Source: a virus
Direction: 5' to 3' (one strand)
DNA: 64,000 nucleotides
UHGV virus genome: UHGV-1358930
Part shown: piece after piece, positions 1 to 14,364 of the stretch
Layout: each line of letters begins with the position of its first letter
Numbering within the stretch: position 1 is the stretch's first letter
The notes under the pieces: model-generated
The model's database searches: none
Told to the model about the DNA's origin: nothing
What the model saw: only the letters and a program-made list of their open reading frames with translations
Program-made: the position numbers and the translations under genes

Positions 1-2
1 TG

Positions 3-899
3 AAATATAAGAAGCGGAACTTAGAGCAGAGCCTGAATGCTTCAAATATCTGTCCTATTTTGCATGACGTATGTGATAGATTGACCATAGATAGAGGCGA
101 GTTAGCAGCACAGCTAGATACCGTTGAGACGGAATTGCTTGCTGCGCAGTATAGATACGCAGATATTACAAGTACCATCAATGATTTAACTTCAAAGATT
201 GACAAGTTGTCAAAAAATCTAGACGTCTTAGCTACTAACTACGATGTTAAGCAGCAGCTAATCGATCATAAAGCCGCTATCAAGTCTCAGGTGAGGGATA
301 TGGTTGCTAGTACTGGTCTCAATGCCGAATTTATCGAATCTGAGTTAGATAAGCTTGATAACATTCGAATCAAATTGCTTGCTAACATGGAATACGATAG
401 AATTATGTCTAAAGTTGTTAAAGATAAGTATCAAGCGGAACTGGATCTGGCAGTACTGAAACGCATTGCAGATAAGTTAGGTCCAAATCAGCTTCAAGCT
501 GTCGTATCCGCCGCACCATTCGAGTCTGCAAAGCAGATCATTTCAGATAATCTCAAAGCGTGCGGATTGCTTGGAGATGCGTATTTTGTTACAGATGGAG
601 GCAACAATTCATTTGACTTTGGACTTGTTAGAGATGATTTGCATATCTCTTATAAATCATTGTCATCGGGTGAAAAATGTCTGTACATGTTAGCATTTAT
701 GACAGCATTACTATCTATGAATGAATGCAGTATCAACCTTTTGCTGTTAGATGATGTATTCGATCACTTAGATAACCAGCACACACAGTTAGCTTTAAGC
801 TATATCAGCAATGATGCTAATGTGCAATACATTTTTGCCGGCGTAAACAATGTATTTGTTGAGCAGAAATTTGACAACATCGATGTTGTAAATATGTGA
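3..899 (+). CDS. SbcC/Rad50-like (T4 gp46-type) recombination ATPase, C-terminal part; reading frame is open to the window edge so the gene continues upstream
   Basis: Frame has no stop from nt 3. Coiled-coil-like segment, then ABC signature LSSGEK and Walker B/D-loop LLLLDDVFDHLD near the C-terminus. Confidence 0.5.
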   Translation, partial: KYKKRNLEQSLNASNICPILHDVCDRLTIDRGELAAQLDTVETELLAAQYRYADITSTINDLTSKIDKLSKNLDVLATNYDVKQQLIDHKAAIKSQVRDMVASTGLNAEFIESELDKLDNIRIKLLANMEYDRIMSKVVKDKYQAELDLAVLKRIADKLGPNQLQAVVSAAPFESAKQIISDNLKACGLLGDAYFVTDGGNNSFDFGLVRDDLHISYKSLSSGEKCLYMLAFMTALLSMNECSINLLLLDDVFDHLDNQHTQLALSYISNDANVQYIFAGVNNVFVEQKFDNIDVVNM

Positions 900-916
900 A
901 TTTAGGAGCAGCTAAA

Positions 917-1408
917 ATGACACTAGAAATCGGAAGTATCTACCATGTTAAGGTTATCAAATTGCTTGATAAAGCTATCATAGTTAGATTACCTGACAAC
1001 TCAACAGAATTGATTCATGTATCTAAAATTGCTAATGCATTTGTCAAAGCACCAGAAGAATATGTGTCGATAGATGATGAATTCGACGCTGTTGGAGTTA
1101 AAGGTCAGACCAAGCCTGTTGAATTATCTTTGAGACACTTAGATCTGAAGAAATTTAATGCTACGATAACTGAACCGAAGATTATCGACCCTCCTAGTAA
1201 ACAGAAGCCGAAACAGCATAGTAAGCTATCTCAGAATGCTAGTAATTCAACGAAACCAATACATTCTAAGATCGACAGGAAACTGTCCTTGGATGAGATG
1301 ATCAAGAAAAGCAACAAGCAATTTGAAGATAAGTTTAGAGGTAGGAAAGACTTCACAAAGAAGAACAAGACTCGTAGAAAAAACCAGAGGCCTTACGAAG
1401 AAGATTAA
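917..1408 (+). CDS. hypothetical protein with S1/OB-fold-like N-terminus and lysine/arginine-rich tail (possible nucleic-acid binding)
   Basis: AGGAG 8 nt upstream of ATG at 917. N-terminus GSIYHVKVIKLLDKAIIVRLPDNSTELIHVSKIA resembles an S1 domain. C-terminus is very basic. Confidence 0.4.
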   Translation: MTLEIGSIYHVKVIKLLDKAIIVRLPDNSTELIHVSKIANAFVKAPEEYVSIDDEFDAVGVKGQTKPVELSLRHLDLKKFNATITEPKIIDPPSKQKPKQHSKLSQNASNSTKPIHSKIDRKLSLDEMIKKSNKQFEDKFRGRKDFTKKNKTRRKNQRPYEED

Positions 1409-1591
1409 CTCTGTATGTCTTCTTGATGCTAAAGTGAATGAACTCGAAATCAAACAAATAGATATTGGCCGAGGATTTTTATCTTCAGCCAATATAAATA
1501 TTCTCAGAAATAGTTATCAAAAAATTAAAATTGCAACGATCGTTAAATAAGTATGTAGCAGAAGAAGGTCAGAGCTTTCGGAAGGAGCTGA

Positions 1592-1801
1592 ATGGTGATG
1601 AAGTCTCAGTCCACTAACTATTACGATCAGATTGATAAGGCAATCAAATCTTACGAACAATCTAGACCGTATCACCCTTTGGGTCCTGATAAAATCTGTG
1701 ATAAAATTGATTGGTGCTGGAAATGGAGAAAAATTTCTGAATGTCAGATGCACAGCCTAGTTGACCGAATAGTGTATCTGATGGACAATAACTTAGTTTG
1801 A
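1592..1801 (+). CDS. hypothetical small protein
   Basis: GGAAGGAG RBS upstream; 69-aa ORF with two Cys/Trp-rich motifs. Confidence 0.3.
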   Translation: MVMKSQSTNYYDQIDKAIKSYEQSRPYHPLGPDKICDKIDWCWKWRKISECQMHSLVDRIVYLMDNNLV

Positions 1802-1868
1802 ATTTAGTTTGATGTTACGGCGTCGCTAAGCGCTAAAACATAGTAGAAACCTTTATTCTATATGATGT

Positions 1869-1942
1869 TGGAGATTGGAGTAATGACAGCACATAGGTCT
1901 TTGACACCTACGGAGTAAGTTCAAATCTTGCATCTCCAGCCA
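1869..1942 (+). tRNA. tRNA-Gln (anticodon TTG), CCA encoded
   Basis: Acceptor tggagat/atctcca. Anticodon stem taggt/accta with loop CTTTGAC. T-arm gtaag-TTCAAAT-cttgc. Discriminator G then CCA. D-stem has one mismatch. Confidence 0.7.
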
Positions 1943-2446
1943 ACTGTCAATACTTAATTGACTGATGTCAGAGTAATCAGCTAACCTGACAAAGAATGAA
2001 AATGGTCGCCCTCCACCCGGAGGGCGTGGATGGAAATTACGAGATAAGTCCTCGTTATTTACCTTAGGATAGTGGCTAGTTGATAACGCGTAGCGTGACA
2101 ATCTAAGCGGTAAGCTGATGAACTAAATTATTTACAATCGTTAATTAAGTATGTAGCAGCTAGTAAGCTATTACATAGGAGCTCACAATCCTGCCGAAAT
2201 ATCATCTAGAATATTTCCGCGCAAATTGGCTGAAAAGAGTGAGTGGCAAGGAATATGCCAGGAATGATTCCAAAGTTGATAAGCAACTATAACCGGGTGC
2301 AAAACCAATCCCGGTATGATTAGAATCATACTTCTTAATAAGAATTCCGTATATCCTTGATTGAAGTATACGAAATTCGTTGATCCTAAAACGATAGGCG
2401 TTAACACATGTTTTATAGGTGACACCTCGGAAAGACGAGGATATAC

Positions 2447-2522
2447 GCTGGTGTAGCTCAGTTGGTAGAGCAGCTGATTTGTAATCAGCAGGTCAGGGGT
2501 TCGAGTCCGTTCACCAGCTCCA
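2447..2522 (+). tRNA. tRNA-Thr (anticodon TGT)
   Basis: Acceptor gctggtg/caccagc. D-arm gctc-agttggta-gagc. Anticodon stem gctga/tcagc with loop TTTGTAA. T-loop TTCGAGT. CCA encoded. Confidence 0.85.
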
Positions 2523-3265
2523 TATCGGCCGGTTTCGGGTCGTTAGATAAACACAGTGATGTGTATAAAGCATGGTCGATGATTTCTGAACCATGCGACT
2601 GAAGAAGTTCTTCAGTGCAACGGAAAACCAATATTCACTAATCCAAACCTACGGTTGAGGGCAACTGCTAATGCTATGGCTTGGAAGGAGTCATGAAAAA
2701 GGCTCTATATTAACTCGGAAACGAGTGGATGGGAAATTGCTTCGAGGTGCGAATCCTGTTAAGTTCAGTGCTTCGTTGATTTTGAAAGCTCCCTTAAATC
2801 GAAAGATAGGAGCGCTTTCAGTAAAGCCTGTCGATAACAAGACGGCAGAACGGCGACGATTGGGTCGTGCTCAAAAGGTACGAATGGTCAAACGTACACC
2901 TCGTCGTTCATTGGGATCAATACACACTTTAGCTTTCATTAGCACCAGTGGGGTAAACTGTTATATCAAGCAAAAGTGTGTGCGACTTTAGAGAGACAAA
3001 CGACTTATCGTTCTGAAAAATGAACGCGCGTAAAGCTCGCAAGGCAATACGTGAGACAGTACGAGTAGGTGCAACCGTAGGAGACCGCAATCTCCGCACT
3101 CCGCAAGAGGCGATGTGCTAAAAGGAAATCTATAGTGCTTCAGAGTAAGATTTTGCTGGCTTTTACAAAACCAGTGTCGTTGATGCCTACAGCTTAATCG
3201 GCTGTGTGGTCACTCGCTTCCAACGGCGAGAGATGGCATCGTGGCGGGTCAAGATCTCAGCCCGT

Positions 3266-3345
3266 CGTTCAATATAGTCCAATAGCTTATCACGGTAAAG
3301 CGCGTTTGTAAAACGACGAGTGGCTCGGTTCGAACCCGGCTTGGA
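3266..3345 (+). tRNA. degenerate tRNA-like element (anticodon loop TTGTAAA, GTA/Tyr-like); possible pseudogene
   Basis: 6-bp acceptor gtccaa/ttggac. Good D-stem gctt/aagc. T-loop TTCGAAC. Anticodon stem only about 3 bp. No CCA. Confidence 0.2.
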
Positions 3346-3629
3346 CATCCTATTAGACCCTTGCACGCCTCTCAACGATGCGTACCATGCGAGGGTCGAA
3401 ATTAAATAGTTTTCTTGCCGCATTTGGTACGAAGTATCAAAATATCCGCTGCCTGCGGTAATAGGTGATCTGAATATAGATCAAATTCAGATCAACGGCG
3501 TAGCATTTAACGGGCTTTAGCTACACTACACGGTAAGAGTTGAGAAAGCTGGTTGATGTATCGTGCAAACCTGCGGGTCCACGATCCACAGACGGTTCGC
3601 GATGACTGCTGTAAACGGAATCGCGTTTT

Positions 3630-3721
3630 GGGAATGTACTCAAGTGGTTGAAGAGACCAGTCCTGAAAACTGGGAGGTCGTTCATAGCGGCGCGAGCGTT
3701 CGAATCGCTCCATTCCCGCCA
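3630..3721 (+). tRNA. type II tRNA-Ser-like (anticodon TGA) with long variable arm; position 33 is C (atypical)
   Basis: Acceptor gggaatg/cattccc. D-arm ctc-aagtggttgaa-gag. Anticodon stem ccagt/actgg with loop CCTGAAA. About 20-nt variable arm. Perfect T-arm gagcg-TTCGAAT-cgctc. Discriminator G then CCA. Confidence 0.65.
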
Positions 3722-4276
3722 TCCCCGCTCGACGCAACGCGCCTGAGAATGAAACCGATGCAACTTTGGGAGCACGTCACACGGGCGGAAAAGCCGTGCG
3801 TTGCTAAACCTGCTCCAACGTAATGGAGGAAGTCGGAACGGCTAATCCGTCAAGAGCCGAAGAACTGGATCCTAAGCTCATATTCGATAACAACAGAAGC
3901 GTGTAGGTGGCAGCTCGGAAAGACGAGCAAATATAGGTCAGTACAGTGTAATTGGTATCACCCCGGACTGTAAATCCAGCTTGGCCTACTATAGAGATAG
4001 CGCTAAGACCAGCTATCACGGCGTTGAATCAGTGATCAGGTACAAGAAACGCTTAATCTCGAAGCGAAACAGAGTAGCTAAAAGAACTGTACGTTGCATA
4101 GTAGGCAACCAACCGAAATTGGCCGAACTGGCGTGTCGTGTAGCCATGCGACTTTAAATAACAACGGTGGCACCATTACATACAGATGCGCTGCGAGCAA
4201 AGTATGAGAAAGATTATCTTTCTTTTGTCGGTGGGCAGGTTTGAAGTTATCCTGTTGCAGATAAAACTTCAAACAC

Positions 4277-4350
4277 GCCGGTATAGTGTAGTGGTAACAC
4301 CCAATCCTTCCAAGATTGTATTGCGGATTCGAGTTCCGTTACCGGCTCCA
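4277..4350 (+). tRNA. tRNA-Gly (anticodon TCC), copy 1
   Basis: Acceptor gccggta/taccggc. D-stem gtgt/acac. Anticodon stem caatc/gattg with loop CTTCCAA. T-loop TTCGAGT. CCA encoded. Confidence 0.8.
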
Positions 4351-4460
4351 GCGCGAGAACGTCACTGACTAAGCGTAGCACAGTGCATGGATAGGAGGGA
4401 AGCTTCATGAGAAACGACGCGCACGCCTTCTAAGTCTTGAAAGGGGGGGGGACTTAGAAA

Positions 4461-4760
4461 ATGAGCAGAAGCTATAAGAAAACGCCGTGGTGCGGAGATA
4501 AGAAAGGCAAATGGAAAAAGCGCAGAGCTTCAAAGGTCGTGCGCGGATATCTCAGGCGCCATATCGAAGATCTGTTCCAAGATGCGCAATACAAGAAAAT
4601 CTACTGTTCACGGTACATATGCGACTACGGGTTCTTATATCCATGGGAAGAGCATTGGACGTATGTGCAGGAAGAGAATTCACATGTGCGTGCGAATGAG
4701 CCAAAACGTTCGAAAGAAGATGAGTACCGCCAGTGGTATCAAGAGTACAAAGCTAAATAA
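4461..4760 (+). CDS. hypothetical basic protein
   Basis: G-rich RBS before ATG at 4461. 99-aa Lys/Arg/Trp/Tyr-rich ORF. A hairpin gcgctct..agagcgc follows the stop codon. Confidence 0.35.
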   Translation: MSRSYKKTPWCGDKKGKWKKRRASKVVRGYLRRHIEDLFQDAQYKKIYCSRYICDYGFLYPWEEHWTYVQEENSHVRANEPKRSKEDEYRQWYQEYKAK

Positions 4761-4799
4761 CAATCGGTTATGCGCTCTCCGATAAAAGAGCGCACACGA

Positions 4800-4874
4800 T
4801 GGGCTATGGTGAAAAGGCAACACATCAGACTTTGACTCTGACATTTGTTGGTTCGAGTCCAACTAGCCCAGCCA
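4800..4874 (+). tRNA. tRNA-Gln (anticodon TTG), copy 2
   Basis: Acceptor tgggcta/tagccca. Anticodon stem tcaga/tctga with loop CTTTGAC. T-arm gttgg-TTCGAGT-ccaac. Discriminator G then CCA. Confidence 0.75.
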
Positions 4875-4949
4875 AGTAAAAAGAAGACGTTTTATCTCTC
4901 TTTATCTTTCTGTTTGTGGCATCAGTACAAACAAAATGCCACACAACAT

Positions 4950-5026
4950 GGGAATGTAGCTCAGTAGGTTAGAGCGCATGACTATAGGTCATGAGGTCGA
5001 AGGTTCAAGCCCTTCTGTTCCCTCCA
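4950..5026 (+). tRNA. tRNA of undetermined identity; anticodon loop CTATAGG gives a formal anticodon ATA (A34, highly unusual); Ile(TAT)-like, Tyr-decoding or a pseudo-tRNA are all possible
   Basis: Canonical cloverleaf: acceptor gggaatg/tgttccc, D-arm gctc-agtaggtta-gagc, anticodon stem catga/tcatg, T-arm gaagg-TTCAAGC-ccttc, CCA encoded. Confidence 0.6.
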
Positions 5027-5435
5027 AAGCCTATGTCAGTATAGGTCTTGAAATGATAAATAGACCAATACATTATCTTTCTAAAGATAATGTATCTGAT
5101 GAAAAGAGATCATCAACTCTCGGCGAAATATAACTGTTGTGACGAATGTGTCGCTTGACACAAAGAAGTAGCAGGTTCGTCGCTGCGCTTAATCTACTGA
5201 ACTGCAATGTTGATGTAAGCAGTGATAGAGGTTCCCAAACCCATTCAGGGAGATTAAGAAAAAGTTTGCTTATTTAGTAGAAAGAGGGTTGGAGGGGCAC
5301 AGCAAGTAGAATAAATGCAATAGGGCAACAAATTTGAAAGCTAATAAAGGATGTGCTAAGGAGCAGAAGTAACTACCTCTGTCTACTGTGTATTTCTACT
5401 AAATGAGTTTAACTTTTTATTAAGGAGCTTATAGT

Positions 5436-5648
5436 ATGAAAACATATACTTTTATTTGTTATGATAAGTATCCAAAAACAGTTAAAAAGTTCCACACTTT
5501 TAGAAAGCGATTTTCTTCGTTATCAGATATTGCTAAATTCTTAAAATCTTCAAATAAGCTCTATTTGCATGAGCCACTGAAACAGCTATCTAAAAACGAA
5601 TTAGCAATTCTGTCAAAGAAGCTCCGATCGTTAAATAACATCACATGA
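5436..5648 (+). CDS. hypothetical small protein
   Basis: AAGGAG RBS 7 nt upstream of ATG; 70-aa Lys-rich ORF. Confidence 0.4.
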   Translation: MKTYTFICYDKYPKTVKKFHTFRKRFSSLSDIAKFLKSSNKLYLHEPLKQLSKNELAILSKKLRSLNNIT

Positions 5649-5771
5649 AAAATCAAAATATTTATAAATAAGCTAGAAGGTTTTAATTAAATTTTATTTT
5701 TGACAATTATACTAAAATACTAAATTATCCGTATAATTGAACCTAATATAAATGTAGATAGGAGGTGATAC

Positions 5772-7028
5772 ATGATGAAAACATGGAAGCAAAATCTAAA
5801 ACATCTTACCGTCGATCAATACAATCTGTTAAGAGAATTATGTAGCTTGTCTAGAGCAGTATATAATGAAAGTTTGTATAATATTCGGCAGCATTATTTT
5901 GAAGAAGGTTCTTACTTGAGATATGAAGCAAACTACTATCTTGTAAAGAATTCTGATAATTACAAAAGATTAGGTGCAAATGTTGCTCAGCAATCTATGA
6001 AAGGAGCTGACGCATCCTTCAAATCCTTCTTCGGGTTACAGAAGCTCGCTAAATCCGGCAAGTATCAGGGCTGGAAAATACGAATGCCCAAATATTTGAA
6101 GAAAGATTCGTTTTTCAAAATAGTATTTAGTCAAGCGCAGATATCAGATGACAAATTTCGTGTTCCGGTTTCTTTTGATATGCGAAAAGATTACAAAGAA
6201 CCAATGTTCATAAAAATTCCTCCGCATATTATCGGCAAGAAAATAAGGCAGATTCATATTGTTCCTAAGTACAACGGTAGATACTTTGAAGTTAGATACA
6301 TGTTTGACGATATTGATGTAGAAAAGCCTGAAATCGATGCTACAAGAGCAATGGGAATAGACTTAGGTGTCAATAACTTAGCTACTTGTGTAACCGATAC
6401 AGGTGAGTCTTTCATAATTGATGGTAAGAAATTAAAATCAATAAATCAATGGTACAACAAAGAGTTGGCCAGACTGTCAAGTATTAAAGATAAGCAAAGT
6501 ATCAAAGGTTACACAAAACGCCAATACAACCTGACAACTAAGAGAAACAACAGAGTTAACAACTATATTTATTGTGCAGCTAAGAAAATAGTTAACTACT
6601 GTGTCAATAACAAAATTGGTAATATTGTTGTAGGGTATAATGATGGTTTTCAATCGAGATCCAACTTAGGAAAAGTAAATAACCAAAACTTCGTTATGAT
6701 TCCGTTAGGACGACTGAAGAGCAGACTTGAGTATCTTTGCAATCAACATGGAATCAATTTTGTACTTCAAGAAGAAAGTTACACTTCAAAAGCATCGTTC
6801 TTTGACGATGATAAAATGCCAAAATGGAATCCGCAGAATCCAGAAGAAGCAAAATTTTCGGGAAAACGCGTATACAGAGGATTATACATCACATCAAACA
6901 AAACCAAAATAAACGCAGATGTCAACGCAGCACTAAACATACTAAGAAAAAGTAACTTGACAGACCTAACCGTCTTACAAGCTAGAGGCGCAGTCAGCTC
7001 GCCTTCAAGATGCTATATAGCATCTTGA
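5772..7028 (+). CDS. tnpB: TnpB (IS200/IS605-family OrfB, RuvC-like RNA-guided nuclease family); no tnpA partner
   Basis: GGAGGTG RBS. 418 aa. C-terminal RuvC-III-like motif INADVNAALNILRKS. Overall TnpB architecture. Confidence 0.85.
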   Translation: MMKTWKQNLKHLTVDQYNLLRELCSLSRAVYNESLYNIRQHYFEEGSYLRYEANYYLVKNSDNYKRLGANVAQQSMKGADASFKSFFGLQKLAKSGKYQGWKIRMPKYLKKDSFFKIVFSQAQISDDKFRVPVSFDMRKDYKEPMFIKIPPHIIGKKIRQIHIVPKYNGRYFEVRYMFDDIDVEKPEIDATRAMGIDLGVNNLATCVTDTGESFIIDGKKLKSINQWYNKELARLSSIKDKQSIKGYTKRQYNLTTKRNNRVNNYIYCAAKKIVNYCVNNKIGNIVVGYNDGFQSRSNLGKVNNQNFVMIPLGRLKSRLEYLCNQHGINFVLQEESYTSKASFFDDDKMPKWNPQNPEEAKFSGKRVYRGLYITSNKTKINADVNAALNILRKSNLTDLTVLQARGAVSSPSRCYIAS

Positions 7029-7071
7029 TAAAGATTTTTTTAATGAATTTAATTGATTTATTTAAAATCTG

Positions 7072-7142
7072 CTGATGTAGCGCAGCTGTTAGAGCAACCG
7101 ACTTTAAGCAATGAGTCGTAGGTTGAAGTCTAGCAACCAGCT
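7072..7142 (+). other. tRNA-like remnant directly 3' of tnpB (D-arm-like tagcgcagctgttagagc, 5/7 acceptor pairing, aberrant 8-10 nt anticodon loop TTAAGCAATG)
   Basis: Partial cloverleaf only. Could be a disrupted tRNA, a tRNA-derived insertion target, or part of the TnpB-associated right-end RNA. Confidence 0.2.
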
Positions 7143-7153
7143 AGATTTGATAT

Positions 7154-7227
7154 GCGGATATAGTGTAACGGTAACATCCGACTCTTCCAAAGTCGTGTTG
7201 CGGGTTCGAGTCCCGTTATCCGCTCCA
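7154..7227 (+). tRNA. tRNA-Gly (anticodon TCC), copy 2
   Basis: Acceptor gcggata/tatccgc. Anticodon stem cgact/agtcg with loop CTTCCAA. T-arm gcggg-TTCGAGT-cccgt. CCA encoded. Confidence 0.8.
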
Positions 7228-7421
7228 AGAGGGAGTATGCACCCCGCTACCCATCTAGTATGTCGACTATCTGATGGCGCGAAATTTAACTGAAAAGAGC
7301 ATATATGCAAGCTTGTCGCATATGAGTACAAGTGTCGTAAAGTCAATACGATGTCTAACTATTTTGACAAAGGCAGAGAAGCTGCTATAATCGGGTGCAA
7401 AAACCATTCCCGATACAATAA

Positions 7422-7498
7422 GGGTCTTTAGCTCAGTTGGTCAGAGCATCCGGCTCATAACCGGACGGTCCAGGGTTCAAACCCCTGAAGACCCACCA
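7422..7498 (+). tRNA. tRNA-Met elongator-type (anticodon CAT; Ile2-lysidine identity cannot be excluded)
   Basis: Acceptor gggtctt/aagaccc with 1:72 paired. Anticodon stem tccgg/ccgga with loop CTCATAA. T-arm caggg-TTCAAAC-ccctg. Discriminator A then CCA. Confidence 0.9.
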
Positions 7499-7713
7499 CA
7501 ATTGGTACAACACGACTGTAACGACTCTCGCGGTTTAAAGTTGTATCCCACTTCTTGATTGAGGTGTGAAGTGTCAAGAGAGCTTCCGACGAGTCTTATG
7601 GGCACCACCTAGCGGTGAAAAGATAAGACAATCGTCATTAGATCTAAGTTGTCCGGCAGTGTTAATGTTATTGAATCATGGTGAAATTGTGATCACATCT
7701 GCCGGATACATAT

Positions 7714-7782
7714 CCTCCCGTAGTGTAGTGGTAGCACTAGCGTCCGTCAGGGCGAAGGATCCGTTCGAATCGGAAGGGAGGT
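7714..7782 (+). tRNA. tRNA-like, probably defective (GTC/Asp-like anticodon region but no proper 7-nt loop/5-bp stem; 4-bp T-stem; no CCA)
   Basis: Acceptor cctccc/gggagg. D-arm gtgt-agtggta-gcac identical in style to the Gly tRNAs. T-loop TTCGAAT. Confidence 0.3.
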
Positions 7783-7997
7783 TGTCTGGCACGGACAAAG
7801 TGCAGAACCTATCAAGAGGAATTCAGTGCCTGCCTCGCTTCGGATAGCAAAAGAAGGCGTTTGGTAGTAATCGACAAACTACTCGCGGTTACAGAGAGGG
7901 AGAGGCGTTACAGGTAAACCTCTTAGGTGCTATGATATCAGGCACTTAGCAAAGCACAGCTTGCAGTTAGGACTAATCCGACCAGATATCAAAATAT

Positions 7998-8071
7998 GCA
8001 GCTATAGTGTAATGGTAACACTCAACTCTTCCAAAGTTGTATTGCCGGTTCAAATCCGGTTAGCTGCTCCA
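7998..8071 (+). tRNA. tRNA-Gly (anticodon TCC), copy 3
   Basis: Acceptor gcagcta/tagctgc. Anticodon stem caact/agttg with loop CTTCCAA. T-arm gccgg-TTCAAAT-ccggt. CCA encoded. Confidence 0.8.
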
Positions 8072-8099
8072 CAGAAAGTCTACAGAAAGGGTGATAAAT

Positions 8100-8417
8100 A
8101 TGGCTATTTATAAATGCCCGGTTTGTGAAGGAAGGGGATTTGTTCCTTTCGGATTCTATACAAGTCAACCACATGATGGAAGCTCAATAACTGGTTCTGC
8201 TTCAACTGAAATTTGTAGAAGCTGTGATGGTAGAGGCGTAATATTTGATGAATGCCTTAGAACAGCTTCAAACAATGAGCAAAAGATCTGTAGCAACTGC
8301 GAAATGAATGATGGAATGGTATATATGTCTTATCCTCCTAAGTACAGATGCACTGTATCCGGTTGTTTCAATGAAGGAACACATCTATGCGATCTAGATG
8401 ACGTGATGGATAAGTGA
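8100..8417 (+). CDS. hypothetical Cys-rich zinc-ribbon protein
   Basis: Multiple CxxC pairs (CPVCEGRG, CRSCDGRG, CSNCE). RBS-like AAAGGGTG upstream. Confidence 0.5.
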   Translation: MAIYKCPVCEGRGFVPFGFYTSQPHDGSSITGSASTEICRSCDGRGVIFDECLRTASNNEQKICSNCEMNDGMVYMSYPPKYRCTVSGCFNEGTHLCDLDDVMDK

Positions 8418-8478
8418 AACAACTATCCAATATAATATAGAGATCGGTAGGACGCTGACGTGTGCTGACCGAATCGTT

Positions 8479-8518
8479 CCGTCTGGGTGCGTCAACACCT
8501 GGACGGTTCTTTTTTTTG
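8479..8518 (+). terminator. rho-independent terminator
   Basis: GC-rich stem ccgtctgg..ccaggacgg followed by TTCTTTTTTTTG. Confidence 0.7.
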
Positions 8519-8534
8519 TTGTTAGATGAATCAA

Positions 8535-8588
8535 ATTATTAACGAATTATTAACGGATATTGAATTTTCCATACAAATATCATATAAT
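8535..8588 (+). promoter_or_regulatory. operator-like direct repeats ATTATTAACGA (x2) fused to a sigma-A consensus promoter (TTGAAT-17-TATAAT)
   Basis: -35 at 8560-8565, 17-nt spacer, -10 TATAAT at 8583-8588. Repeats at 8535-8556. Confidence 0.6.
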
Positions 8589-8651
8589 ATAATCATAAAA
8601 AAGCTGGTCCAATCCAACACATCAAAAAGCTTCAAAGCTAAGGAGGACAAC

Positions 8652-8966
8652 ATGAAAGGATACGTTATCAAAGTTACATACCTCACAGGCCCACATGAAG
8701 GAAAGTCTTATTTCCTCCAAAAAGGTGGGTTTGTAACCTCTGATCCAGATAACCAGTGGTCACATAATTGCTACAAGACGGAAAATATCTGCAAGTCGGT
8801 TTGCAGACAACTTGGATGCAATAACAAGATTAACCACATGGTGGAGGAGAAAACCAGAGAGTTTCAGATTCAACACGGTCGAGATGTATCAGATTCAATG
8901 ATCTACGAATTGGAATACTACGAACCGTATTTCGTCAAAAATGTTCGCAATTCATATGTTGACTAA
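8652..8966 (+). CDS. hypothetical protein
   Basis: AAGGAGG RBS 6 nt before ATG at 8652. The upstream part of the listed ORF 8526 is the promoter region. Confidence 0.5.
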   Translation: MKGYVIKVTYLTGPHEGKSYFLQKGGFVTSDPDNQWSHNCYKTENICKSVCRQLGCNNKINHMVEEKTREFQIQHGRDVSDSMIYELEYYEPYFVKNVRNSYVD

Positions 8967-8979
8967 GGAGGTATTCAAT

Positions 8980-9258
8980 ATGATTGTATACAGCAGATCT
9001 GAAGCAAAAGAATTGTTAGATAGAAACTGCGAGATTGCAGAGCACTCCAGCATGGTTGTTGTTACAGTCTTTCACACGGACTTAATTACAAAGGAAGTAT
9101 GCGTTACAGACATATTCAGCCATGATGCAGTGCAGGCAATGATCTGGAAGTCAGATTACCTGAACCGACTCAAATCGCTAAAAGTTCCGTATATCGCATA
9201 TATCGGCAACACCCTTGAATCCGCATATAGCTATGTTGAATTTGAGGAGGACAAGTAA
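8980..9258 (+). CDS. hypothetical protein
   Basis: AAGGAGG RBS before ATG 8980. Confidence 0.5.
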   Translation: MIVYSRSEAKELLDRNCEIAEHSSMVVVTVFHTDLITKEVCVTDIFSHDAVQAMIWKSDYLNRLKSLKVPYIAYIGNTLESAYSYVEFEEDK

Positions 9259-9264
9259 CTACAT

Positions 9265-9459
9265 ATGAAAGAAATCAAATTTTTACTCAGTAATCATGAA
9301 GTAGAAACAATGCGAGCAGCATTCAACAACTCTTTTTTACAAAAACCTGATACAGAAGCAGCAGATAGCGAAATCGATGACACAGACAGCGATATCGCAA
9401 GATTCATTATCTGGAACTACGTTAAATTTTATGAAGCAATGAAAGGTACGGAGGAATGA
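9265..9459 (+). CDS. hypothetical acidic small protein
   Basis: GAGGAGG upstream; 64 aa. Confidence 0.4.
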   Translation: MKEIKFLLSNHEVETMRAAFNNSFLQKPDTEAADSEIDDTDSDIARFIIWNYVKFYEAMKGTEE

Positions 9460-9779
9460 CAATGATGGATAGAAAAGTTGATATGGCTCTGTTTTCTGCA
9501 AACAATTGGATCAATTACCAGCTTGAGATGCAGAAAGCTGCGATTCAAATCATAAGAAACGCAATTGAAGAAACAAGGAAAGCTTACACGCTTCAGAGCA
9601 AACAAAGCCTTGAGGAAGATGAAGGAGTTGAAGTTTTCACAAGCGCCGACATCGCAGAAATCTGCAAGTTGCTCGACAGCTCAGAATCGGAAATCGAGTC
9701 AGTTATATCTAAGCTAGAAGAAGCAAAGGAAATGATGCCTGATTTTGACAGGAGCTTAAAGCATGAAACGAATAAGTAA
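9456..9779 (+). CDS. hypothetical protein
   Basis: GGAGG RBS; overlaps the previous stop (ATGA). Confidence 0.5.
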   Translation: MTMMDRKVDMALFSANNWINYQLEMQKAAIQIIRNAIEETRKAYTLQSKQSLEEDEGVEVFTSADIAEICKLLDSSESEIESVISKLEEAKEMMPDFDRSLKHETNK

Positions 9780-10158
9780 GAAATCTAACATATTGGGAAT
9801 GGCTAAAGAACCGTCAAGAGGTGTTTTCTGGATCGTTGACGGAAAAGTTCTTTCATTTCCATTCTATCATGATATAACGTCTCTCGGCGTTTCTAAATCA
9901 GGATTGACATACAACCACAAAAAGTTGTGGCCAGAGGTTAAACCTAAAGGATGTAACAAGCCGTATAATTACTATCCTCGAGGAAGAGTCGAACTAGGTA
10001 GAAAGTTTCCTATCATCTATGTAAACCCGAATTTTGACAAGTTTGACCTAGCTGAGGTCAAAAAGGATTTTGGACTTGTAGATGAGCCGAAAGTAATATT
10101 TGACAATTCAGATCATTACAAATGTTATCTTGACGACGGATGGAAGCCAGATAAGTAA
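9763..10158 (+). CDS. hypothetical protein
   Basis: 131-aa ORF, start overlaps the previous gene. Confidence 0.45.
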   Translation: MKRISKKSNILGMAKEPSRGVFWIVDGKVLSFPFYHDITSLGVSKSGLTYNHKKLWPEVKPKGCNKPYNYYPRGRVELGRKFPIIYVNPNFDKFDLAEVKKDFGLVDEPKVIFDNSDHYKCYLDDGWKPDK

Positions 10159-10294
10159 CAATCGTTATATGATAAGAGATGAATAAATTGAAAAAAGTTA
10201 TCTACGCTTCTAAACAGCTGGAGGATAAGTACAAGAAATTAGCGTAAAAGCTTTACAAACAGAATAAATCTACAATGGAGAGACTTAAAGATAA

Positions 10295-10738
10295 ATGATA
10301 GATAGACAATTAGTTGAAGCATTTAACTCAAACAAGTCAAATGTAGAAATAATAGAGATTGAATTTTATGCGAATGTAGAGCAACCTAATAATGTCAATT
10401 CTGACAAAGATTCAACCCCTAAAGAACACAAGCAGAGTACTTATAAGAGAATATTCAAAGCCTTTGTAGATAATGCAATAAGACTTATGAAAGAAAGACA
10501 CAGCAGGATTGTAGATATCCATCAATCTAGCAGAGCTGGATCGAATTCTTGGTATGTCGCAATGTACCCAGCAAACAATCAGGGCGAGATAGAATCTAAA
10601 TATTTGTTCATTTTTGTATTCTCTGAATACGCAAAGCAGTTAAATGTTCCATTTGAGATCGTTGTCAAGAGAGACAACAACGAAATTCACATCAAGTCGT
10701 TCGCAGAGGCACTAGACTTCTTAACTATGATAAGATGA
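10295..10738 (+). CDS. hypothetical protein
   Basis: 147-aa ORF after an AT-rich spacer. Confidence 0.45.
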   Translation: MIDRQLVEAFNSNKSNVEIIEIEFYANVEQPNNVNSDKDSTPKEHKQSTYKRIFKAFVDNAIRLMKERHSRIVDIHQSSRAGSNSWYVAMYPANNQGEIESKYLFIFVFSEYAKQLNVPFEIVVKRDNNEIHIKSFAEALDFLTMIR

Positions 10739-10960
10739 AACGAACAGCGTGGATTGATAACTTGAATCAGCTCAAATAGCTGAAAATGAGCAGTCTTGGT
10801 AGAATGCGGGAAGTTGGTAAGGGTATCAACAACACACTACAGCATGGTGGGTTTGCTGTAGACAAAATACAATCAGCTCGATAATAGAGCTGTTAACGAA
10901 GATTCGGTTATGCATGAGCATTTCCGAATCTTTTATTGTGTTTGCTTAGAGGTGATAAAA

Positions 10961-11173
10961 ATGAAAATATTAAGATGTCCTGTATGCAATTCAAAAATCG
11001 TTATTTTACACGATATAGATACTAGATTTGACGAAATCCGATATCGTATACTTTGTTCAGATTACAGCTGTGTAATCAACGATGTATGCGCTTCTAGTTC
11101 AACTAAATTAGGTGCATATAAATTATGGATAGCAATGAGGAGATGGGTCTTACGTGATCACAGAGGAAATTGA
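10961..11173 (+). CDS. hypothetical zinc-ribbon protein
   Basis: GAGGTGA RBS before ATG 10961; CPVCNS ... CSDYSC motifs. Confidence 0.4.
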   Translation: MKILRCPVCNSKIVILHDIDTRFDEIRYRILCSDYSCVINDVCASSSTKLGAYKLWIAMRRWVLRDHRGN

Positions 11174-11663
11174 AGTATGGAAAGACATTCCAGGTTATGT
11201 GAGCTATCAAGCTTCAAGCTTAGGTAGAATTCGTCAATCGTTGCCAAACAGCAACTACAAATACCTAAAGCCCAGTATGACGACAGATGGATATTTAACA
11301 GTACACGTAGTAGGATGTCCGCTTAGATATCCAACAGTTGCTAAACTAGTTTGCTTAGCATTTCATGGACACTCTTCGCTTGATATTATTCATCCCGTTG
11401 TAGATCACATAAACAATAATTCAACAGATAATCGACCGGAAAATTTAAGATGGATATCACAAAGAGAGAACGTCAATCAAGCAATTAAGTACAGAATAGG
11501 TAAATGCCAAATACGATGCAAAGAAATAGGCGAAATATTTGATTCTATTTCTGCAGCGAGTAAGCAGCTTAGCATTCGTTACTATTCGATATATAACAAT
11601 CTGAGGAATAATATTCCAACGCATGGATTATCATTTGAAAGGATAGAAAAGGCAGATGGCTGA
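11154..11663 (+). CDS. HNH homing endonuclease (NUMOD4 + HNH_3 type)
   Basis: WKDIPGY..YQASSLGRIR N-terminus; HNH core VDHINNNSTDNRPENLRWISQRENVNQ. Confidence 0.8.
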   Translation: MITEEIEVWKDIPGYVSYQASSLGRIRQSLPNSNYKYLKPSMTTDGYLTVHVVGCPLRYPTVAKLVCLAFHGHSSLDIIHPVVDHINNNSTDNRPENLRWISQRENVNQAIKYRIGKCQIRCKEIGEIFDSISAASKQLSIRYYSIYNNLRNNIPTHGLSFERIEKADG

Positions 11664-12153
11664 AGAAATATGGAAAGACATCCCGAATTATACACCGTAT
11701 CAAGCTTCTTCATTAGGTAACATCCGAATGAAACTGACTGACGGTTCATTTAAGCTACTCAAGCCGTTCTTAAACATGGATGGTTACTATCAAGTAGCTG
11801 TCAAGAACTGTCCTACAAAACTACCTAACCTTCACAGGCTTGTAGCTTTTGCGTTTCATGGTGTACCAGAAACTAGGATGGTAGTAGATCATTTGAATAA
11901 CATACATACTGATAATAGACCTGAAAATCTAGAATGGGTTACGCAGAAAGAAAATATGCGAAGGGCGAAGGTGATGGGACTGTATGCTAAGAAAACAAAA
12001 ATCAAATGCGTAGAAGACAACATCATCTATGAATCTATCGCAGACTGCGCGAAGAAAACAGGTATTCGACCTGCAAGTTTGTGGAGTACTACAAGAGACG
12101 GTACAGCAATTCATGGTAAACATTATATAAGAATTGAGCAAGAAAATATCTAA
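11656..12153 (+). CDS. HNH homing endonuclease, tandem paralogue of the preceding gene
   Basis: EIWKDIPNYTPYQASSLGNIR; VDHLNNIHTDNRPENLEWVTQKEN. Confidence 0.8.
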   Translation: MAEEIWKDIPNYTPYQASSLGNIRMKLTDGSFKLLKPFLNMDGYYQVAVKNCPTKLPNLHRLVAFAFHGVPETRMVVDHLNNIHTDNRPENLEWVTQKENMRRAKVMGLYAKKTKIKCVEDNIIYESIADCAKKTGIRPASLWSTTRDGTAIHGKHYIRIEQENI

Positions 12154-12276: not shown

Positions 12277-12564
12277 ATGGAGAAGAACATTGTAACTTCT
12301 ATAACAGATCAGATTCGAGTACTGCAGGAACATGAAGTCATTGCTTCAAAAGCAGGATTGCACTACGCAGTTATGTTTGTGCAGCTAGATGATAAATCAG
12401 AAGTATTCTGGCACGATATTTGGTCACAAGATAAGAATATACTCATGTGGATGCTAGACCAGCTTGAAGCAAGCTACAACGATATGGAAGATGTCAGATA
12501 TGAATCATATGTTGGTACACATATTCGTAACATCGGTTCGAGTGGATTAGATTTCAGTAATTGA
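12277..12564 (+). CDS. hypothetical protein
   Basis: GGAGG RBS; 95 aa. Confidence 0.5.
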   Translation: MEKNIVTSITDQIRVLQEHEVIASKAGLHYAVMFVQLDDKSEVFWHDIWSQDKNILMWMLDQLEASYNDMEDVRYESYVGTHIRNIGSSGLDFSN

Positions 12565-12646
12565 CGAAGAGTCTGCAATATGTCTTCGGAACAGATCAAT
12601 TCACAAATAGATTCAACTGATGTCAATATTTCTAAAGGGAACTAAT

Positions 12647-12952
12647 ATGAAACGTATCCAGTCTATCAATGAATTTCATAATGCAAAAGCAGATGTTATC
12701 AACAAAGCTAATATGATCAATGGATTCGCAGGTATGTGCTTCTTCACAGATCCAGTAACCGGCTACACTATTATGCTAGATGTAATCAGCTCAGACAGAA
12801 ATGTAGTAGAAGATTGGCTGGATAACTGTAGCAATACATATCGAAGAAATTGTGAAAGTTTTGTAACGTATCTAAATGAAGATCTTTATTATGATGGTGT
12901 AAAACGAGATTGGGCTTGGTCTTTACTTGGAAGCATATTCCAGTTCGCATAA
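12647..12952 (+). CDS. hypothetical protein
   Basis: AAAGGGAAC RBS before ATG 12647. Confidence 0.45.
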   Translation: MKRIQSINEFHNAKADVINKANMINGFAGMCFFTDPVTGYTIMLDVISSDRNVVEDWLDNCSNTYRRNCESFVTYLNEDLYYDGVKRDWAWSLLGSIFQFA

Positions 12953-12986
12953 ACATTGTAAGATACGTTACAATTGGAGATCAAAC

Positions 12987-13406
12987 ATGATTACTAAAAA
13001 AGATTTGTCATATTTTAGAATTGCTAAGCAAACAGCTAAATTGTCTACTTGGGAACAAGTTAGGTATCAAATTGGGTGTGTAGTAGTATTGAACCACAGA
13101 ATAATCAGCGTCGGATTCAACACAACAAAGACAGATACCCTTCAGAAGAAATACAACAAAGAGAGATTCACAGAAGAATCGTGTCATATGGCTCATGCGG
13201 AGCTGTTAGCTTTGAAGCCGTTGTTATACGATAACACGATTGACGCTTCTAAGCTTAAAGTATATGTATACAGAGAGTTGAAAACGGGTAAACTTGGCTG
13301 TGCTCGTCCTTGTAAAAGTTGTATGAAGCTGATAAAAGACATCGGCATTCGTTACATATATTATACAACTTCTGATGGATACGCAGAAGAAAAAATATTG
13401 TATTAA
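12987..13406 (+). CDS. dCMP/cytidine deaminase-family zinc enzyme (dCMP deaminase likely)
   Basis: CDA-fold zinc motifs HAE (CHMAHAELLAL) and PCxxC (RPCKSCMKLI). Confidence 0.7.
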   Translation: MITKKDLSYFRIAKQTAKLSTWEQVRYQIGCVVVLNHRIISVGFNTTKTDTLQKKYNKERFTEESCHMAHAELLALKPLLYDNTIDASKLKVYVYRELKTGKLGCARPCKSCMKLIKDIGIRYIYYTTSDGYAEEKILY

Positions 13407-13420
13407 GTAGGTGAATTACA

Positions 13421-13891
13421 ATGAAGTTGTTCTTAAATAGAGATATTTTCTGTCAAGCTTTTCCGATGTCTAAGGTAAAAGATAAACTACTTGCTGACTC
13501 AAAACAGCTCAACGAGCACATATTGAAATGCGTCATCTATTATGATGAGTTACATTGCTTATCGCATTGGATAGACGAAATTACAAGTTGGGTGTACAAA
13601 GCAAGCACAGTAAGCAGTAAGCACAACATATCGGGTAAAACGTATCAGAATACAATATTCAGCTGGTTTGGAGAAGATCAAAGAGACTGCGAATCTAATC
13701 TATACGACTTTTATGCAAAATTTGTTATGAAACGAAAATCTTACCCAGAGTTTGAAATTTCTGATTACTTGATTGAAAGATTGTATCATGTATATAGAGA
13801 ATTTGAACGTGATATCATCAACATGTATATTAGTAAATACAATTACAGTAAATCCGATTATCTAGAAGCTGTTACAGATATATTGAAGTGA
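13421..13891 (+). CDS. hypothetical protein
   Basis: AGGTGA RBS; 156 aa. Confidence 0.5.
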   Translation: MKLFLNRDIFCQAFPMSKVKDKLLADSKQLNEHILKCVIYYDELHCLSHWIDEITSWVYKASTVSSKHNISGKTYQNTIFSWFGEDQRDCESNLYDFYAKFVMKRKSYPEFEISDYLIERLYHVYREFERDIINMYISKYNYSKSDYLEAVTDILK

Positions 13892-13907
13892 GATAGGAGG
13901 TGACCGC

Positions 13908-14342
13908 ATGAAGAAGTGGATCAACTACAGCCAACCGATATTTGCAATGGCTATAATCAATCCGCAGCTAAATACGGAATTTGGAATATTTGTTGAAGTG
14001 TTTCAAAACAACGAAGGTAGTATTCCGCATGTGCATGTGTATCACGACAAATCTCGAAACAAGCGAAGATGCTCAATAGTTCGATTAGATAAACCAGAAT
14101 ACTCAACACATCACAAGTATAATCCTGCGATGCTTAAAGATGTGAAAGAAAAATTTCTTAAAATAATGACTCAACCCTGGCCCAGTCACATCATTCAGCT
14201 TTCCGATGGATCGTATCGACCTGCAACAGGATACGAAGCTGCAGTTAAAATTTGGGCAGATACATTTGAAAAAGGAAGTTTAGCGAAATTTAATCTAGAT
14301 AAGAATGGTGACATTATCAACATCGACTATTCTAACATTTAA
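13908..14342 (+). CDS. hypothetical protein
   Basis: GGAGGTGA RBS; 144 aa. Confidence 0.5.
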   Translation: MKKWINYSQPIFAMAIINPQLNTEFGIFVEVFQNNEGSIPHVHVYHDKSRNKRRCSIVRLDKPEYSTHHKYNPAMLKDVKEKFLKIMTQPWPSHIIQLSDGSYRPATGYEAAVKIWADTFEKGSLAKFNLDKNGDIINIDYSNI

Positions 14343-14364
14343 GAAAATATTAGGAGGTATTGCA

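Follow-up and report, generated by a model that had tools for sequence, protein, structure and literature searches.

The virus genome UHGV-1358930 was examined as a single stretch of 64,000 nt, hereafter the window, in which positions 1869-8071 hold an array of transfer RNA (tRNA) genes interleaved with large structured non-coding RNAs. The array occupies an island of ~1.4-8.1 kb with a G+C content of 0.45-0.53, compared to 0.35-0.39 in the flanks, and credible open reading frames (ORFs) are almost absent across it. Canonical tRNAs encoding their CCA ends alternate there with conserved structured RNAs, including a GOLLD-like RNA and the spacer RNAs s1, s5, s7, and s8, and the relatives of this phage differ by whole cassettes broken at tRNA ends. 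On balance, and with some reserve, we favor a reading of the interval as a cassette-shuffled operon of tRNAs and non-coding RNAs from a large AT-rich phage of gut type, in which tRNA shapes that most likely have ceased to decode would act as processing punctuation. The odd tRNA cluster described in the original prediction is confirmed and its tRNAs are real, but the GOLLD-like RNA, an abiF motif, a TnpB element, and the tRNA relics at 7071 and 3938 had been overlooked. Positions are window coordinates unless a contig is named, all features lie on the plus strand unless stated otherwise, Gly1-3 and Gln1-2 designate tRNA copies in array order, and L001, L003, L005, L006, L010, L013, L021-L023, L027, and L044-L046 are related phage contigs.

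ARAGORN places nine tRNA genes exactly where a cloverleaf had been recognized before, all on the plus strand and each with an encoded CCA end; no transfer-messenger RNA (tmRNA) was detected by the same program. Eight of the nine genes pass the Rfam tRNA model (RF00005), with 47.7-73.4 bits against a threshold of 29. An open 7-nt anticodon loop with U33 and a purine at position 37 is displayed by (i) two tRNA-Gln(UUG), of which copy 1 (1869-1942, 47.7 bits) is the weaker and carries a D-stem mismatch, and copy 2 (4800-4874, 63.7 bits) is canonical and highly conserved; (ii) a canonical tRNA-Thr(UGU) (2447-2522, 67.3 bits), the CCA end of which abuts the 5′ end of the GOLLD-like RNA with a gap of 0 nt; (iii) three tRNA-Gly(UCC), at 4277-4350 (61.5 bits; the last element of the cassette that bears the GOLLD-like RNA), 7154-7227 (63.5 bits), and 7998-8071 (67.8 bits); and (iv) a tRNA with a CAU anticodon (7422-7498, 73.4 bits), called Met-cat by ARAGORN and representing either an elongator Met or a lysidine-type Ile2 tRNA. 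Such a loop is lacking in a class II tRNA-Ser(UGA) with C33 (3630-3721; called by ARAGORN, and by Rfam only as tRNA-Sec, at 32.8 bits), in the element at 4950 (predicted 3-nt loop), and in the elements at 3276 (triloop) and 7712 (tetraloop), which are for this reason not filed as ordinary decoding tRNAs. Degenerate tRNA-like elements number four (3276-3350, 3938-3990, 7071-7142, and 7712-7784), and those at 3276, 7071, and 7712 are called only at a relaxed ARAGORN threshold (-ps80).

The three genes with a CTTCCAA loop (4277, 7154, and 7998) carry distinct acceptor strands, read as GCCGGTA, GCGGATA, and GCAGCTA, and so do the two Gln genes with a CTTTGAC loop (1869 and 4800), read as TGGAGAT and TGGGCTA, in agreement with the first description of the locus. 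The recent duplication of isoacceptors proposed there is contradicted by the comparison of the copies: pairwise identity is 78-81% among the Gly tRNAs, with Gly1 at 78% to both Gly2 and Gly3, and 64% between Gln1 and Gln2, and Gly2 and Gly3 each have orthologues of their own. Gly2 is identical in the window, L001, L006, L044, L045, and L046, Gln2 is identical in L001 and L005 and matches at 73 of 75 positions in L003, and the orthologues of Gly3 in L001 and L046 carry C33 (CCTCCAA). Judged from these alignments, the Gly and Gln copies are old paralogues united by cassette exchange and not recent duplicates. Gln1 looks relaxed, because its orthologue in L001, with a lower score of 37.4 bits, has mismatches in the acceptor and anticodon stems. 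In the CAU tRNA, the 5-bp anticodon stem is swapped entire relative to the orthologues in L001 (14126-14202) and L005 (CCGG.. versus CATA..), with pairing kept and the rest of the molecule nearly identical. Codon use was counted on the phage side, over 15,020 codons in 57 window ORFs. GGA makes up 46% of Gly codons, ACA 45% of Thr codons, and CAA 55% of Gln codons, each the commonest for its amino acid, and TCA ranks second among the Ser codons (22%), with a G+C content at third codon positions of 0.32. Since seven of the nine tRNAs carry U34, the set fits the A-ending codons of the phage; the island serves none of GAT, AAA, GAA, and AAT, the commonest codons overall.

The GOLLD-like RNA spans 2523-3264 (741 nt; Rfam RF02032) and comprises a variable 5′ domain (2523-2847) followed by a conserved 3′ domain (2848-3264). 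In a permissive Rfam scan, the whole model (positions 1-416) aligns to 2848-3263 with 92.1 bits and an E value of 1.2e-23, without reaching the curated threshold of 150 bits. None of the homologues tested passes that threshold (95.8 bits for L006, and 0 of 17 loci from IMG/VR), and the RNA is therefore called GOLLD-like, as a divergent subfamily, and not a curated member. The segment from the Thr CCA at 2522 to 3264 aligns end to end with its L006 counterpart, including the 5′ domain that lies outside the Rfam model. A motif search of IMG/VR returned the 17 further homologues, all in phage contigs of 11-157 kb, 15 of them longer than 80 kb. The RNAalifold consensus of 16 homologues contains 97 pairs, 60 of which show compensatory double changes, its helices coincide with those of the Rfam consensus, and the minimum free energy of the window RNA lies at a z-score of -3.2 relative to dinucleotide shuffles. 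As in GOLLD, a multi-helix 3′ domain backed by covariation is joined to a variable 5′ domain within ~700-800 nt, among phage genes and with tRNA shapes on both sides. The RNA has no match in INPHARED, and a search of 185,579 representative bacterial genomes with the motif gave five matches, all by chance, with no such RNA and no tRNAs nearby.

The association of this RNA with tRNA shapes is regular across its homologues. In the 19 loci compared (the window, L006, and 17 from IMG/VR), a tRNA or tRNA-like element lies upstream in 18, at an estimated gap of 0-87 nt, and downstream in 17, at a gap of 9-113 nt; every flank with sequence present showed a tRNA shape. L006, L022, and L023 have, on the 5′ side, a tRNA-like element that lacks CCA and carries an 8-nt loop made up of purines only, and, on the 3′ side, a real tRNA-Thr. 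The order is reversed in the window, with the real Thr 5′ and the non-decoding shape 3′, and the fold of the non-decoding neighbor is kept in both arrangements. In the branch formed by the window, L006, and L022, the GOLLD-like RNA is not followed by a terminator-like hairpin, and the first tRNA shape downstream begins 9-11 nt past its 3′ hairpin.

In the window, this shape is the pseudo-tRNA at 3276-3350, separated by 11 nt from the upstream 3′ hairpin of the GOLLD-like RNA and by 8 nt from the downstream abiF motif, so that a non-decoding tRNA fold stands directly 3′ of a long non-coding RNA, as in the mascRNA type. A degenerate GTA-like gene had been placed at 3266; the element exists, but it is the orthologue of the canonical Thr-TGT found 3′ of the GOLLD-like RNA in L006 and L022 and not a Tyr-GTA tRNA. 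A Tyr identity was rejected, given that the orthologues are Thr-UGU and that the "GTA" is part of the TGTA of the Thr loop; no other element receives from the model scans an anticodon different from the one first assigned. The pseudo-tRNA ends in CCT in place of CCA, and its anticodon arm is re-registered, with a predicted CGTTT/AAACG stem closed by a GUA triloop. Compared with the Thr tRNA of L006, both bases have been replaced with pairing preserved in pairs 4-69, 7-66, 12-23, and 52-62, distributed over the acceptor, D, and T stems; the terminal pairs 1-72 and 49-65 are the sole broken ones.

The element at 4950-5026 (ARAGORN Tyr-ata; Rfam 62.7 bits) combines the loop CTATAGG, from which the formal anticodon ATA is read directly as first reported, with a discriminator T and an encoded CCA. 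Its T arm and 3′ acceptor strand are shared with a canonical Asn-GTT tRNA (CTGTTAA loop, G73) present in 13 IMG/VR matches and in L003. The window and its nearest kin depart from the Asn consensus at 11 places (positions 5-7, 17, 34, 36, 37, 38, 45, one T-loop base, and 73) with every stem left unbroken, and the three acceptor changes still pair with an unchanged partner strand; by a rough estimate that assumes uniform mutation, 11 random substitutions would contain no disruptive hit with a chance of ~0.003. Close relatives differ from one another only at position 35 and at the discriminator, with ATA in the window, L044, and L045 and ACA in L001 and L046, and with C73 in L044 and T73 in the others. 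Pairs C32-G38 and U33-G37 can form, and the arm is predicted to extend to 7 bp with a 3-nt loop, at -7.6 kcal/mol versus -3.1 kcal/mol for the Asn arm. Between conserved flanks, the slot of this tRNA is occupied by Asn-GTT in L003, Leu-TAA in L005, and an aberrant "Asp-ATC" in L006. Functional divergence, the other interpretation offered at first, fits several members better than simple redundancy does, as illustrated by the 11 changes without a broken stem at 4950 and the four compensatory pairs at 3276.

Further loop variants occur in the related islands. In the fetched loci, 112 distinct tRNAs include five without U33 and four with A34 in split codon boxes, all of them with further loop oddities. 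The "Asp-ATC" element of L006 (8834-8907, loop CGATCAG), which occupies the slot of the ATA tRNA, and an "Asn-ATT" element of L021 (76-148, minus strand, loop CGATTAA) both carry A34 and G33, with GA in place of the UG of a queuosine-family loop. In the ACA allele of the element at 4950, the sequence U33-A34-C35 is similar to the target of TadA. If A34 of the AUA and ACA forms were deaminated to inosine, the tRNA could read UAA or UGA in addition to UAY or UGY and act as a stop suppressor, a form of recoding for which the placement of A34 in a split codon box and the occurrence of Asp-atc and Asn-att in L006 and L021 could also be cited. We regard this as very improbable: read with the standard code, the window genes, structural ones among them, are long and tile well, folding predicts that only three loop nucleotides stay open in the arm, A36 is not typically followed by G37 and G38, and a single tRNA body would have to suppress a different stop codon in each of its two alleles. 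Stop-codon recoding was rejected, the genes being intact under the standard code.

The ancestry of the same element bears on queuosine, since it descends from Asn-GUU, a member of the queuosine family, and the window carries a real preQ1 gene set at 32905-39062, comprising a YhhQ-like transporter, QueF with an intein (34369-35925), QueC, an HNH endonuclease, QueD, QueE, and FolE. The GUN-like elements had been linked to this pathway, as possible substrates or partners of it. The genes lie 25-30 kb from the island and NAU codons are preferred by the phage (60-70%), but U33-G34-U35 in an open loop occurs in 0 of the 9 tRNAs and no intact GUN tRNA is present: the element at 4950 has A34 and has lost G34, the base that is exchanged, the element at 7712 has C33 and encloses GUC in a tetraloop, and the one at 3276 derives from Thr. 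No homologue of TGT or DpdA was found among the ~50 window ORFs scanned. The connection is thus most unlikely for the island; the NAU preference leaves a possible effect on host queuosine tRNAs, separate from it. Such phage clusters are, as Hutinet et al. are said to have reported in 2019, best known for DNA modification. Overall, the first interpretation is partly supported, in that divergence stands and both recent duplication and the queuosine link fall.

A third non-decoding shape closes a conserved RNA at 7499-7784, which is formed by s7 (7499-7711, ~210 nt) and a tRNA-like 3′ domain (7712-7784). The latter corresponds to the GTC-like gene without a proper anticodon loop that had been given at 7714, and its predicted fold comprises a 6-bp acceptor, no CCA, and a 5-bp anticodon-arm stem with a GUCA tetraloop. 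The s7 RNA and its 3′ domain are conserved in the window, L001, L005, L045, and L046, the aberrant arm being the same in the window, L005, and L045 and variant in L001 and L046. The region 7490-8000 has no match in Rfam, YrlA and RAGATH-36 included; RAGATH-36 matches only the L003 counterpart, below threshold, and L003 holds two RAGATH-36-like matches (3156-3292 and 12409-12583), also below threshold. The tRNA-Ser with C33, read as CCTGAAA as first noted, is different in character, with all stems intact, G73, and CCA; its loop recurs in an unrelated Ser body in L013 and L027. IMG/VR yielded no orthologue of the 7712 element or of this Ser tRNA beyond one known relative. Taken together, the alignments indicate that the aberrant elements derive from real tRNAs, from Thr-UGU for 3276 and from Asn-GUU for 4950, and structure prediction indicates that anticodon arms have been rewritten, three of them into closed 3-4-nt loops, with the other stems kept by compensatory or pair-preserving changes.

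The two remaining degenerate elements are of another kind. At 3938-4045, alignment to L022 reveals a tRNA-like remnant (3938-3990) followed by a partial drum-like RNA; an 18-nt deletion has removed the 5′ half of the T arm, which is intact in L022, where the drum RNA follows (L022 1998-2105, RF02958, 80.8 bits). At 7071-7142, 12 nt upstream of Gly2, a 5′-truncated remnant is conserved in five contigs (the window, L001, L003, L005, and L006), with a predicted fold that lacks the 5′ acceptor strand and is not a cloverleaf. These elements raise the possibility of birth and death alone, by which recombination adds cassettes, the elements at 3276, 3938, 4950, 7071, and 7712 and the Ser tRNA with C33 are functionless pseudogenes, and their neighbors are incidental. 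The deletion at 3938, the truncation at 7071, and the mismatched Gln1 orthologue of L001 are what such a process would leave. The element at 3276 lacks CCA and is ~60% identical to its Thr orthologue, compared to ~76% for the neighboring GOLLD-like RNA, and many other tRNAs in these islands are broken, such as the "Pro/gaga" element of L005 and L045 with its disrupted acceptor. Nevertheless, pure decay, which explains 3938, 7071, and Gln1, does not explain the compensatory changes in 3276 or the lack of disruptive ones in 4950, nor the anticodon arms that gained predicted stability instead of losing it, nor the conservation of 7712, which, like 7071, is as well conserved across distant relatives as the adjoining functional Gly tRNA. 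As a complete account, birth and death is thus possible, yet we consider it doubtful.

Long spacers between the tRNAs are themselves structured and conserved. The spacer s1 (1943-2446) has a folding z-score of -5.1 against dinucleotide shuffles, compared to -1.1 to -2.3 for coding controls; blocks of it are conserved in L001, L003, and L005, and it holds the second copy of a repeat (2137-2159) together with a degenerate copy of a promoter and leader hairpin (2278-2323). The RNA s5 (5027-5435, z-score -3.2) lies between the variable tRNA slot and a 70-aa ORF and has no match in Rfam. Its 11 homologues (for example L003 10569-11105 and L006 8910-9451) display long-range helices with 13 covarying pairs, and an internal domain of ~140-180 nt is missing from the window, L001, and L005. 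The spacer s8 (7785-7997) is a swappable cassette before Gly-UCC, 72% identical to L006 7443-7629, which is likewise located upstream of a Gly-tcc; the sequences in the same slot of L001 and L005 are not homologous to it.

No isolated phage close to the one examined was found in INPHARED, where the island gave only short, tRNA-sized matches to four records. L001 (IMG/VR) was reached via flanking proteins with 94% amino-acid identity, L003, L005, L006, and L010 via a 99-aa ORF of the island, and L044-L046 via a metagenome scan. Compared with L001, the island is colinear save for whole blocks. The block at 2455-4340 comprises the Thr body, the GOLLD-like RNA, the pseudo-tRNA, the abiF motif, the Ser tRNA with C33, a 555-nt spacer, and Gly1; it is absent from L001, L044, L045, and L046 and replaces the body of an 86-nt, class-II-shaped Thr-tgt, which fills the same slot in L044-L046 as well. 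Its break points fall inside the shared acceptor ends. This class-II-shaped tRNA with a Thr-TGT anticodon is 100% identical in L001 (12447-12532), L003 (9811-9896), and L005 (1450-1535). At 7804-7993, the window sequence is exchanged for unrelated sequence in L001.

Another discrete difference is a TnpB-only insertion element at ~5642-7076 (1.43 kb), with tnpB at 5772-7028 (Pfam OrfB_IS605, 1e-23; Cas12f1-like_TNB zinc ribbon, 3e-8) and no TnpA. The element is absent from L001, L044, L045, and L046, with otherwise colinear flanks, and its domains together with this discrete presence or absence are those of the TnpB elements of the IS200/IS605-IS607 type. It is inserted into the third copy of the repeat ATCGTTAAWTAA(G)TATGTAGC, with AT at each end of the insertion and a junction left ambiguous by this dinucleotide. 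The three island copies of the repeat lie at 1539-1561, at 2137-2159, and, split by the insertion, at 5627-5641 with 7077-7090; weaker copies are found at 32717, 41984, and 52344. The repeat, as ATCGTTAAWTAA..ATGTAGC, was considered as a sigma-70 promoter and rejected on account of its wrong spacing. The D arm of a tRNA relic adjoins the right end of the TnpB element, at what would be the guide region of the omega RNA. A second tnpB gene is located at 52515-53651 on the minus strand.

The island contains two small ORFs (99 and 70 aa), both conserved. The former (4461-4760) encodes a basic protein with 13 homologues, including those in the tRNA islands of L003, L005, L006, and L010, and in the homologue contigs fetched it always lies inside a tRNA island; it has no match in Pfam, PHROG, or the PDB, and its AF2 model has a pLDDT of 65.6. 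A consensus sigma-70 promoter with an extended -10 element (TTGACA-16-TGcTATAAT, 12 of 12 positions) lies at 7364-7391, upstream of the CAU tRNA, and a single strong intrinsic terminator was found within or beyond the array, an 11-bp stem with a T run at 8479-8506, 3′ of a 108-aa zinc-finger ORF; no strong terminator was found in the array before it.

The reading that we favor, that of a punctuated operon, connects these features as follows. Given the single consensus promoter at 7364 and the absence of a strong terminator before 8479, transcription would run through long stretches of the array, and host RNase P together with the enzymes of tRNA 3′ maturation (RNase Z for the CCA-less elements) would cut at every tRNA shape. 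The cuts would release mature tRNAs and, with them, the GOLLD-like RNA, the abiF hairpin, s5, s7, and s8. Because the GOLLD-like RNA of the window branch has no terminator of its own, RNase P cleavage at the Thr-derived pseudo-tRNA, 11 nt downstream, is proposed to generate its 3′ end; the same pseudo-tRNA may also release the abiF-type hairpin, 8 nt beyond it, at the 5′ end. Non-decoding shapes would then be kept as punctuation, truly redundant copies (Gln1 in L001, 3938, and 7071) would decay, and the U34 tRNAs would serve the A-ending codons of the phage.

Several points weigh against this reading. Co-transcription and cleavage by RNase P and RNase Z are deduced from the sequence only. Most other branches separate the GOLLD-like RNA from the tRNA that follows by a terminator-like hairpin with a T run, so that 3′-end formation dependent on a tRNA is not general. 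The element at 4950 keeps its CCA and varies exactly at position 35 and the discriminator, which punctuation leaves unexplained, as it does the recurrence of C33. The spacer s3 around 3938 has a z-score of only -1.1, as plain decay would give, and the 18-nt deletion at 3938 and the missing 5′ acceptor strand at 7071 look like plain decay too. Moreover, the arguments from fold retention rest on few sequences, and codon compensation was tested from the phage side only.

The abiF motif adds a further aspect. This antitoxin-type hairpin, at 3359-3395, scores 38.3 bits for RF03085 against a threshold of 37; its 15-nt core, GCCTCTCAACGATGC, matches exactly at 15 of 15 positions, and the outer stem comprises 6 bp. 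No abiF (Abi_2) gene lies downstream of the motif, where only short spurious ORFs and a tRNA are present. Because no Abi_2 ORF follows, the element is an orphan motif and not an AbiF system, and because an RNA with this motif is a proven AbiF antitoxin, it is a candidate phage antitoxin mimic. The RNA in question, RCd22 with its two motifs, binds and neutralizes the AbiF toxin in trans (PMC12373285), and AbiF is a HEPN RNase related to Cas13.

On this basis, the array may be tentatively viewed as an anti-defense toolkit against anticodon-loop RNases of the HEPN kind (PrrC, Cas13, and AbiF types), a view compatible with the punctuation reading. In detail, and no more firmly, U34 tRNAs would replace cleaved host tRNAs, C33 or zipped loops would be uncleavable versions or decoys, and the abiF hairpin would be the antitoxin mimic. 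The orphan motif stands above the Rfam threshold, and the island carries two Gln-UUG and a Thr-UGU, tRNAs that Cas13a prefers along with Lys-UUU and Glu-UUC, cutting at the first anticodon U (PMC11042736). C33 is shared by two Ser-UGA bodies that are unrelated and by a Gly-UCC lineage, and it has been proposed that phages evade nucleases through mutations in their tRNA anticodon loops (PMC10264068). Orphan RNAs of the DUF3800-I and drum types are present in related islands, DUF3800 features in the listed literature on genes associated with retrons and CRISPR, and L006 encodes a T4-type RNA ligase 1 and a kinase near its island. Against these points, a single abiF motif is present here whereas RCd22 needs two (PMC12373285), the enrichment of U34 is equally explained by AT-rich codon use, and C33 or zipped loops may simply impair the tRNAs. 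The loop variants are present and recurrent. A bolder and rather unlikely extension would make such arrays processing platforms for anti-defense RNAs, in which non-decoding shapes recruit RNase P and RNase Z to excise the cargo and closed-loop or C33 tRNAs are decoys or uncleavable substitutes for HEPN-type nucleases. The cargo would be the GOLLD-like RNA and orphan defense-associated RNAs, abiF here and DUF3800-I and drum in the relatives.

Other genes of the window and of the related contigs are recorded here. In L006, an AAA_33 kinase and a T4-type RNA ligase 1 (17273-19982) lie a few kb from the tRNA island. The kinase and RNA ligase of T4 repair tRNAs cut by anticodon nucleases, and the L006 pair resembles them. 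Two orphan RNAs of L006 (6211-6305 and 11919-11989) match DUF3800-I (45.6 bits, above threshold) and a twister-P1-like motif (42.5 bits, below threshold). The 126-kb contig L010 carries 28 tRNAs near genes for a DUF2828/DUF7788 protein and a protein with major-vault-protein shoulder domains (12368-16630 and 1-12000). In the window, the ORF at 42170-42823 is similar to a PHROG annotated as a MazF-like growth inhibitor (E 1e-13) and may be an endoribonuclease relevant to the odd loops; a DnaB-like helicase (49876-52299) contains a Hom_end insert, probably an intein; and homing endonucleases of the HNH and GIY-YIG types are located at 36712-37371, 60597-61289, and 61821-62564.

GOLLD is among the largest bacterial and phage RNAs without a known function, and the locus offers a testable picture of its making, in which a GOLLD-like RNA would be cut from a tRNA-punctuated transcript with the help of a decayed tRNA kept only for its shape. 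With the abiF hairpin and the loop-rewritten tRNAs in one putative operon, direct tests of a phage counter to abortive infection by RNases would also become possible. Annotators may note that phage tRNAs called "redundant" or "aberrant" can flag unannotated large RNAs, and that a rewritten loop can give rise to an artefactual formal assignment such as Tyr-AUA or Cys-ACA. In the literature searched, of limited coverage, we did not find descriptions of (i) the regular abutment of non-decoding tRNA shapes on a GOLLD-like RNA with fold-preserving evolution, (ii) the rewriting of an Asn tRNA to A34 with polymorphic position 35 and discriminator, or (iii) an orphan abiF motif in a phage tRNA array.

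The general architecture is already known, because GOLLD has been published beside or inside phage tRNA islands: one paper places it near such islands and describes tRNAs within its linker in some cases (PMC12286853), a second finds it in a tRNA cluster that also holds a pseudo-tRNA (PMC6582537), and a third in or near phage tRNA islands (PMC5737381). A 14-mer RNA cage has been resolved by cryo-EM for the env-38 RNA and is known for env-38 only (PMC12286853). With the GOLLD tRNA arrays (Weinberg 2009; the Mycobacterium clusters; env-38 downstream of a tRNA-Met), the present array shares a large two-domain RNA that is flanked by tRNAs within a phage tRNA cluster, has pseudo-tRNAs close by, and is accompanied there by homing or mobile elements. 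It differs in that its RNA belongs to a large-phage subfamily of 19 contigs below the curated threshold (92-96 bits for the window and L006), the window branch has no terminator, and a non-decoding tRNA shape adjoins the RNA. YrlA and tmRNA offer a second comparison, in which the conserved non-coding RNA at 7499-7784 likewise ends in a domain of acceptor, D, and T arms without a functional anticodon loop; it has no Rfam match to either, and no Ro/Rsr gene was seen in the window.

The nuclease-evading tRNAs of phages (van den Berg et al. 2023; T5 versus PARIS; retron Ec78) resemble those described here in the concentration of changes in the loop and in the over-representation of U-rich anticodons. 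Those known cases keep a decodable 7-nt loop and anticodon, whereas several elements of the island change the anticodon or close the loop. RNA antitoxin mimicry is exemplified by the pseudo-ToxI of phage PhiTE. As in PhiTE, an antitoxin-type hairpin is present here in a phage without the toxin gene; in contrast to PhiTE and RCd22, it is a single motif and not two or a repeat array, it is placed inside a tRNA array, and it is known from its sequence. Finally, in MALAT1/mascRNA and MEN-beta, an RNase P cut at a tRNA-like element makes the 3′ end of a long RNA. The locus shares with MALAT1/mascRNA and with mitochondrial punctuation a tRNA-like structure with a degenerate arm right 3′ of a long non-coding RNA. 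They operate in the nuclei or organelles of eukaryotes, whereas the cleavage proposed here belongs to a phage and is read from its sequence, and, compared to mascRNA, the element of the window is clearly a decayed copy of a real tRNA gene at that very position.

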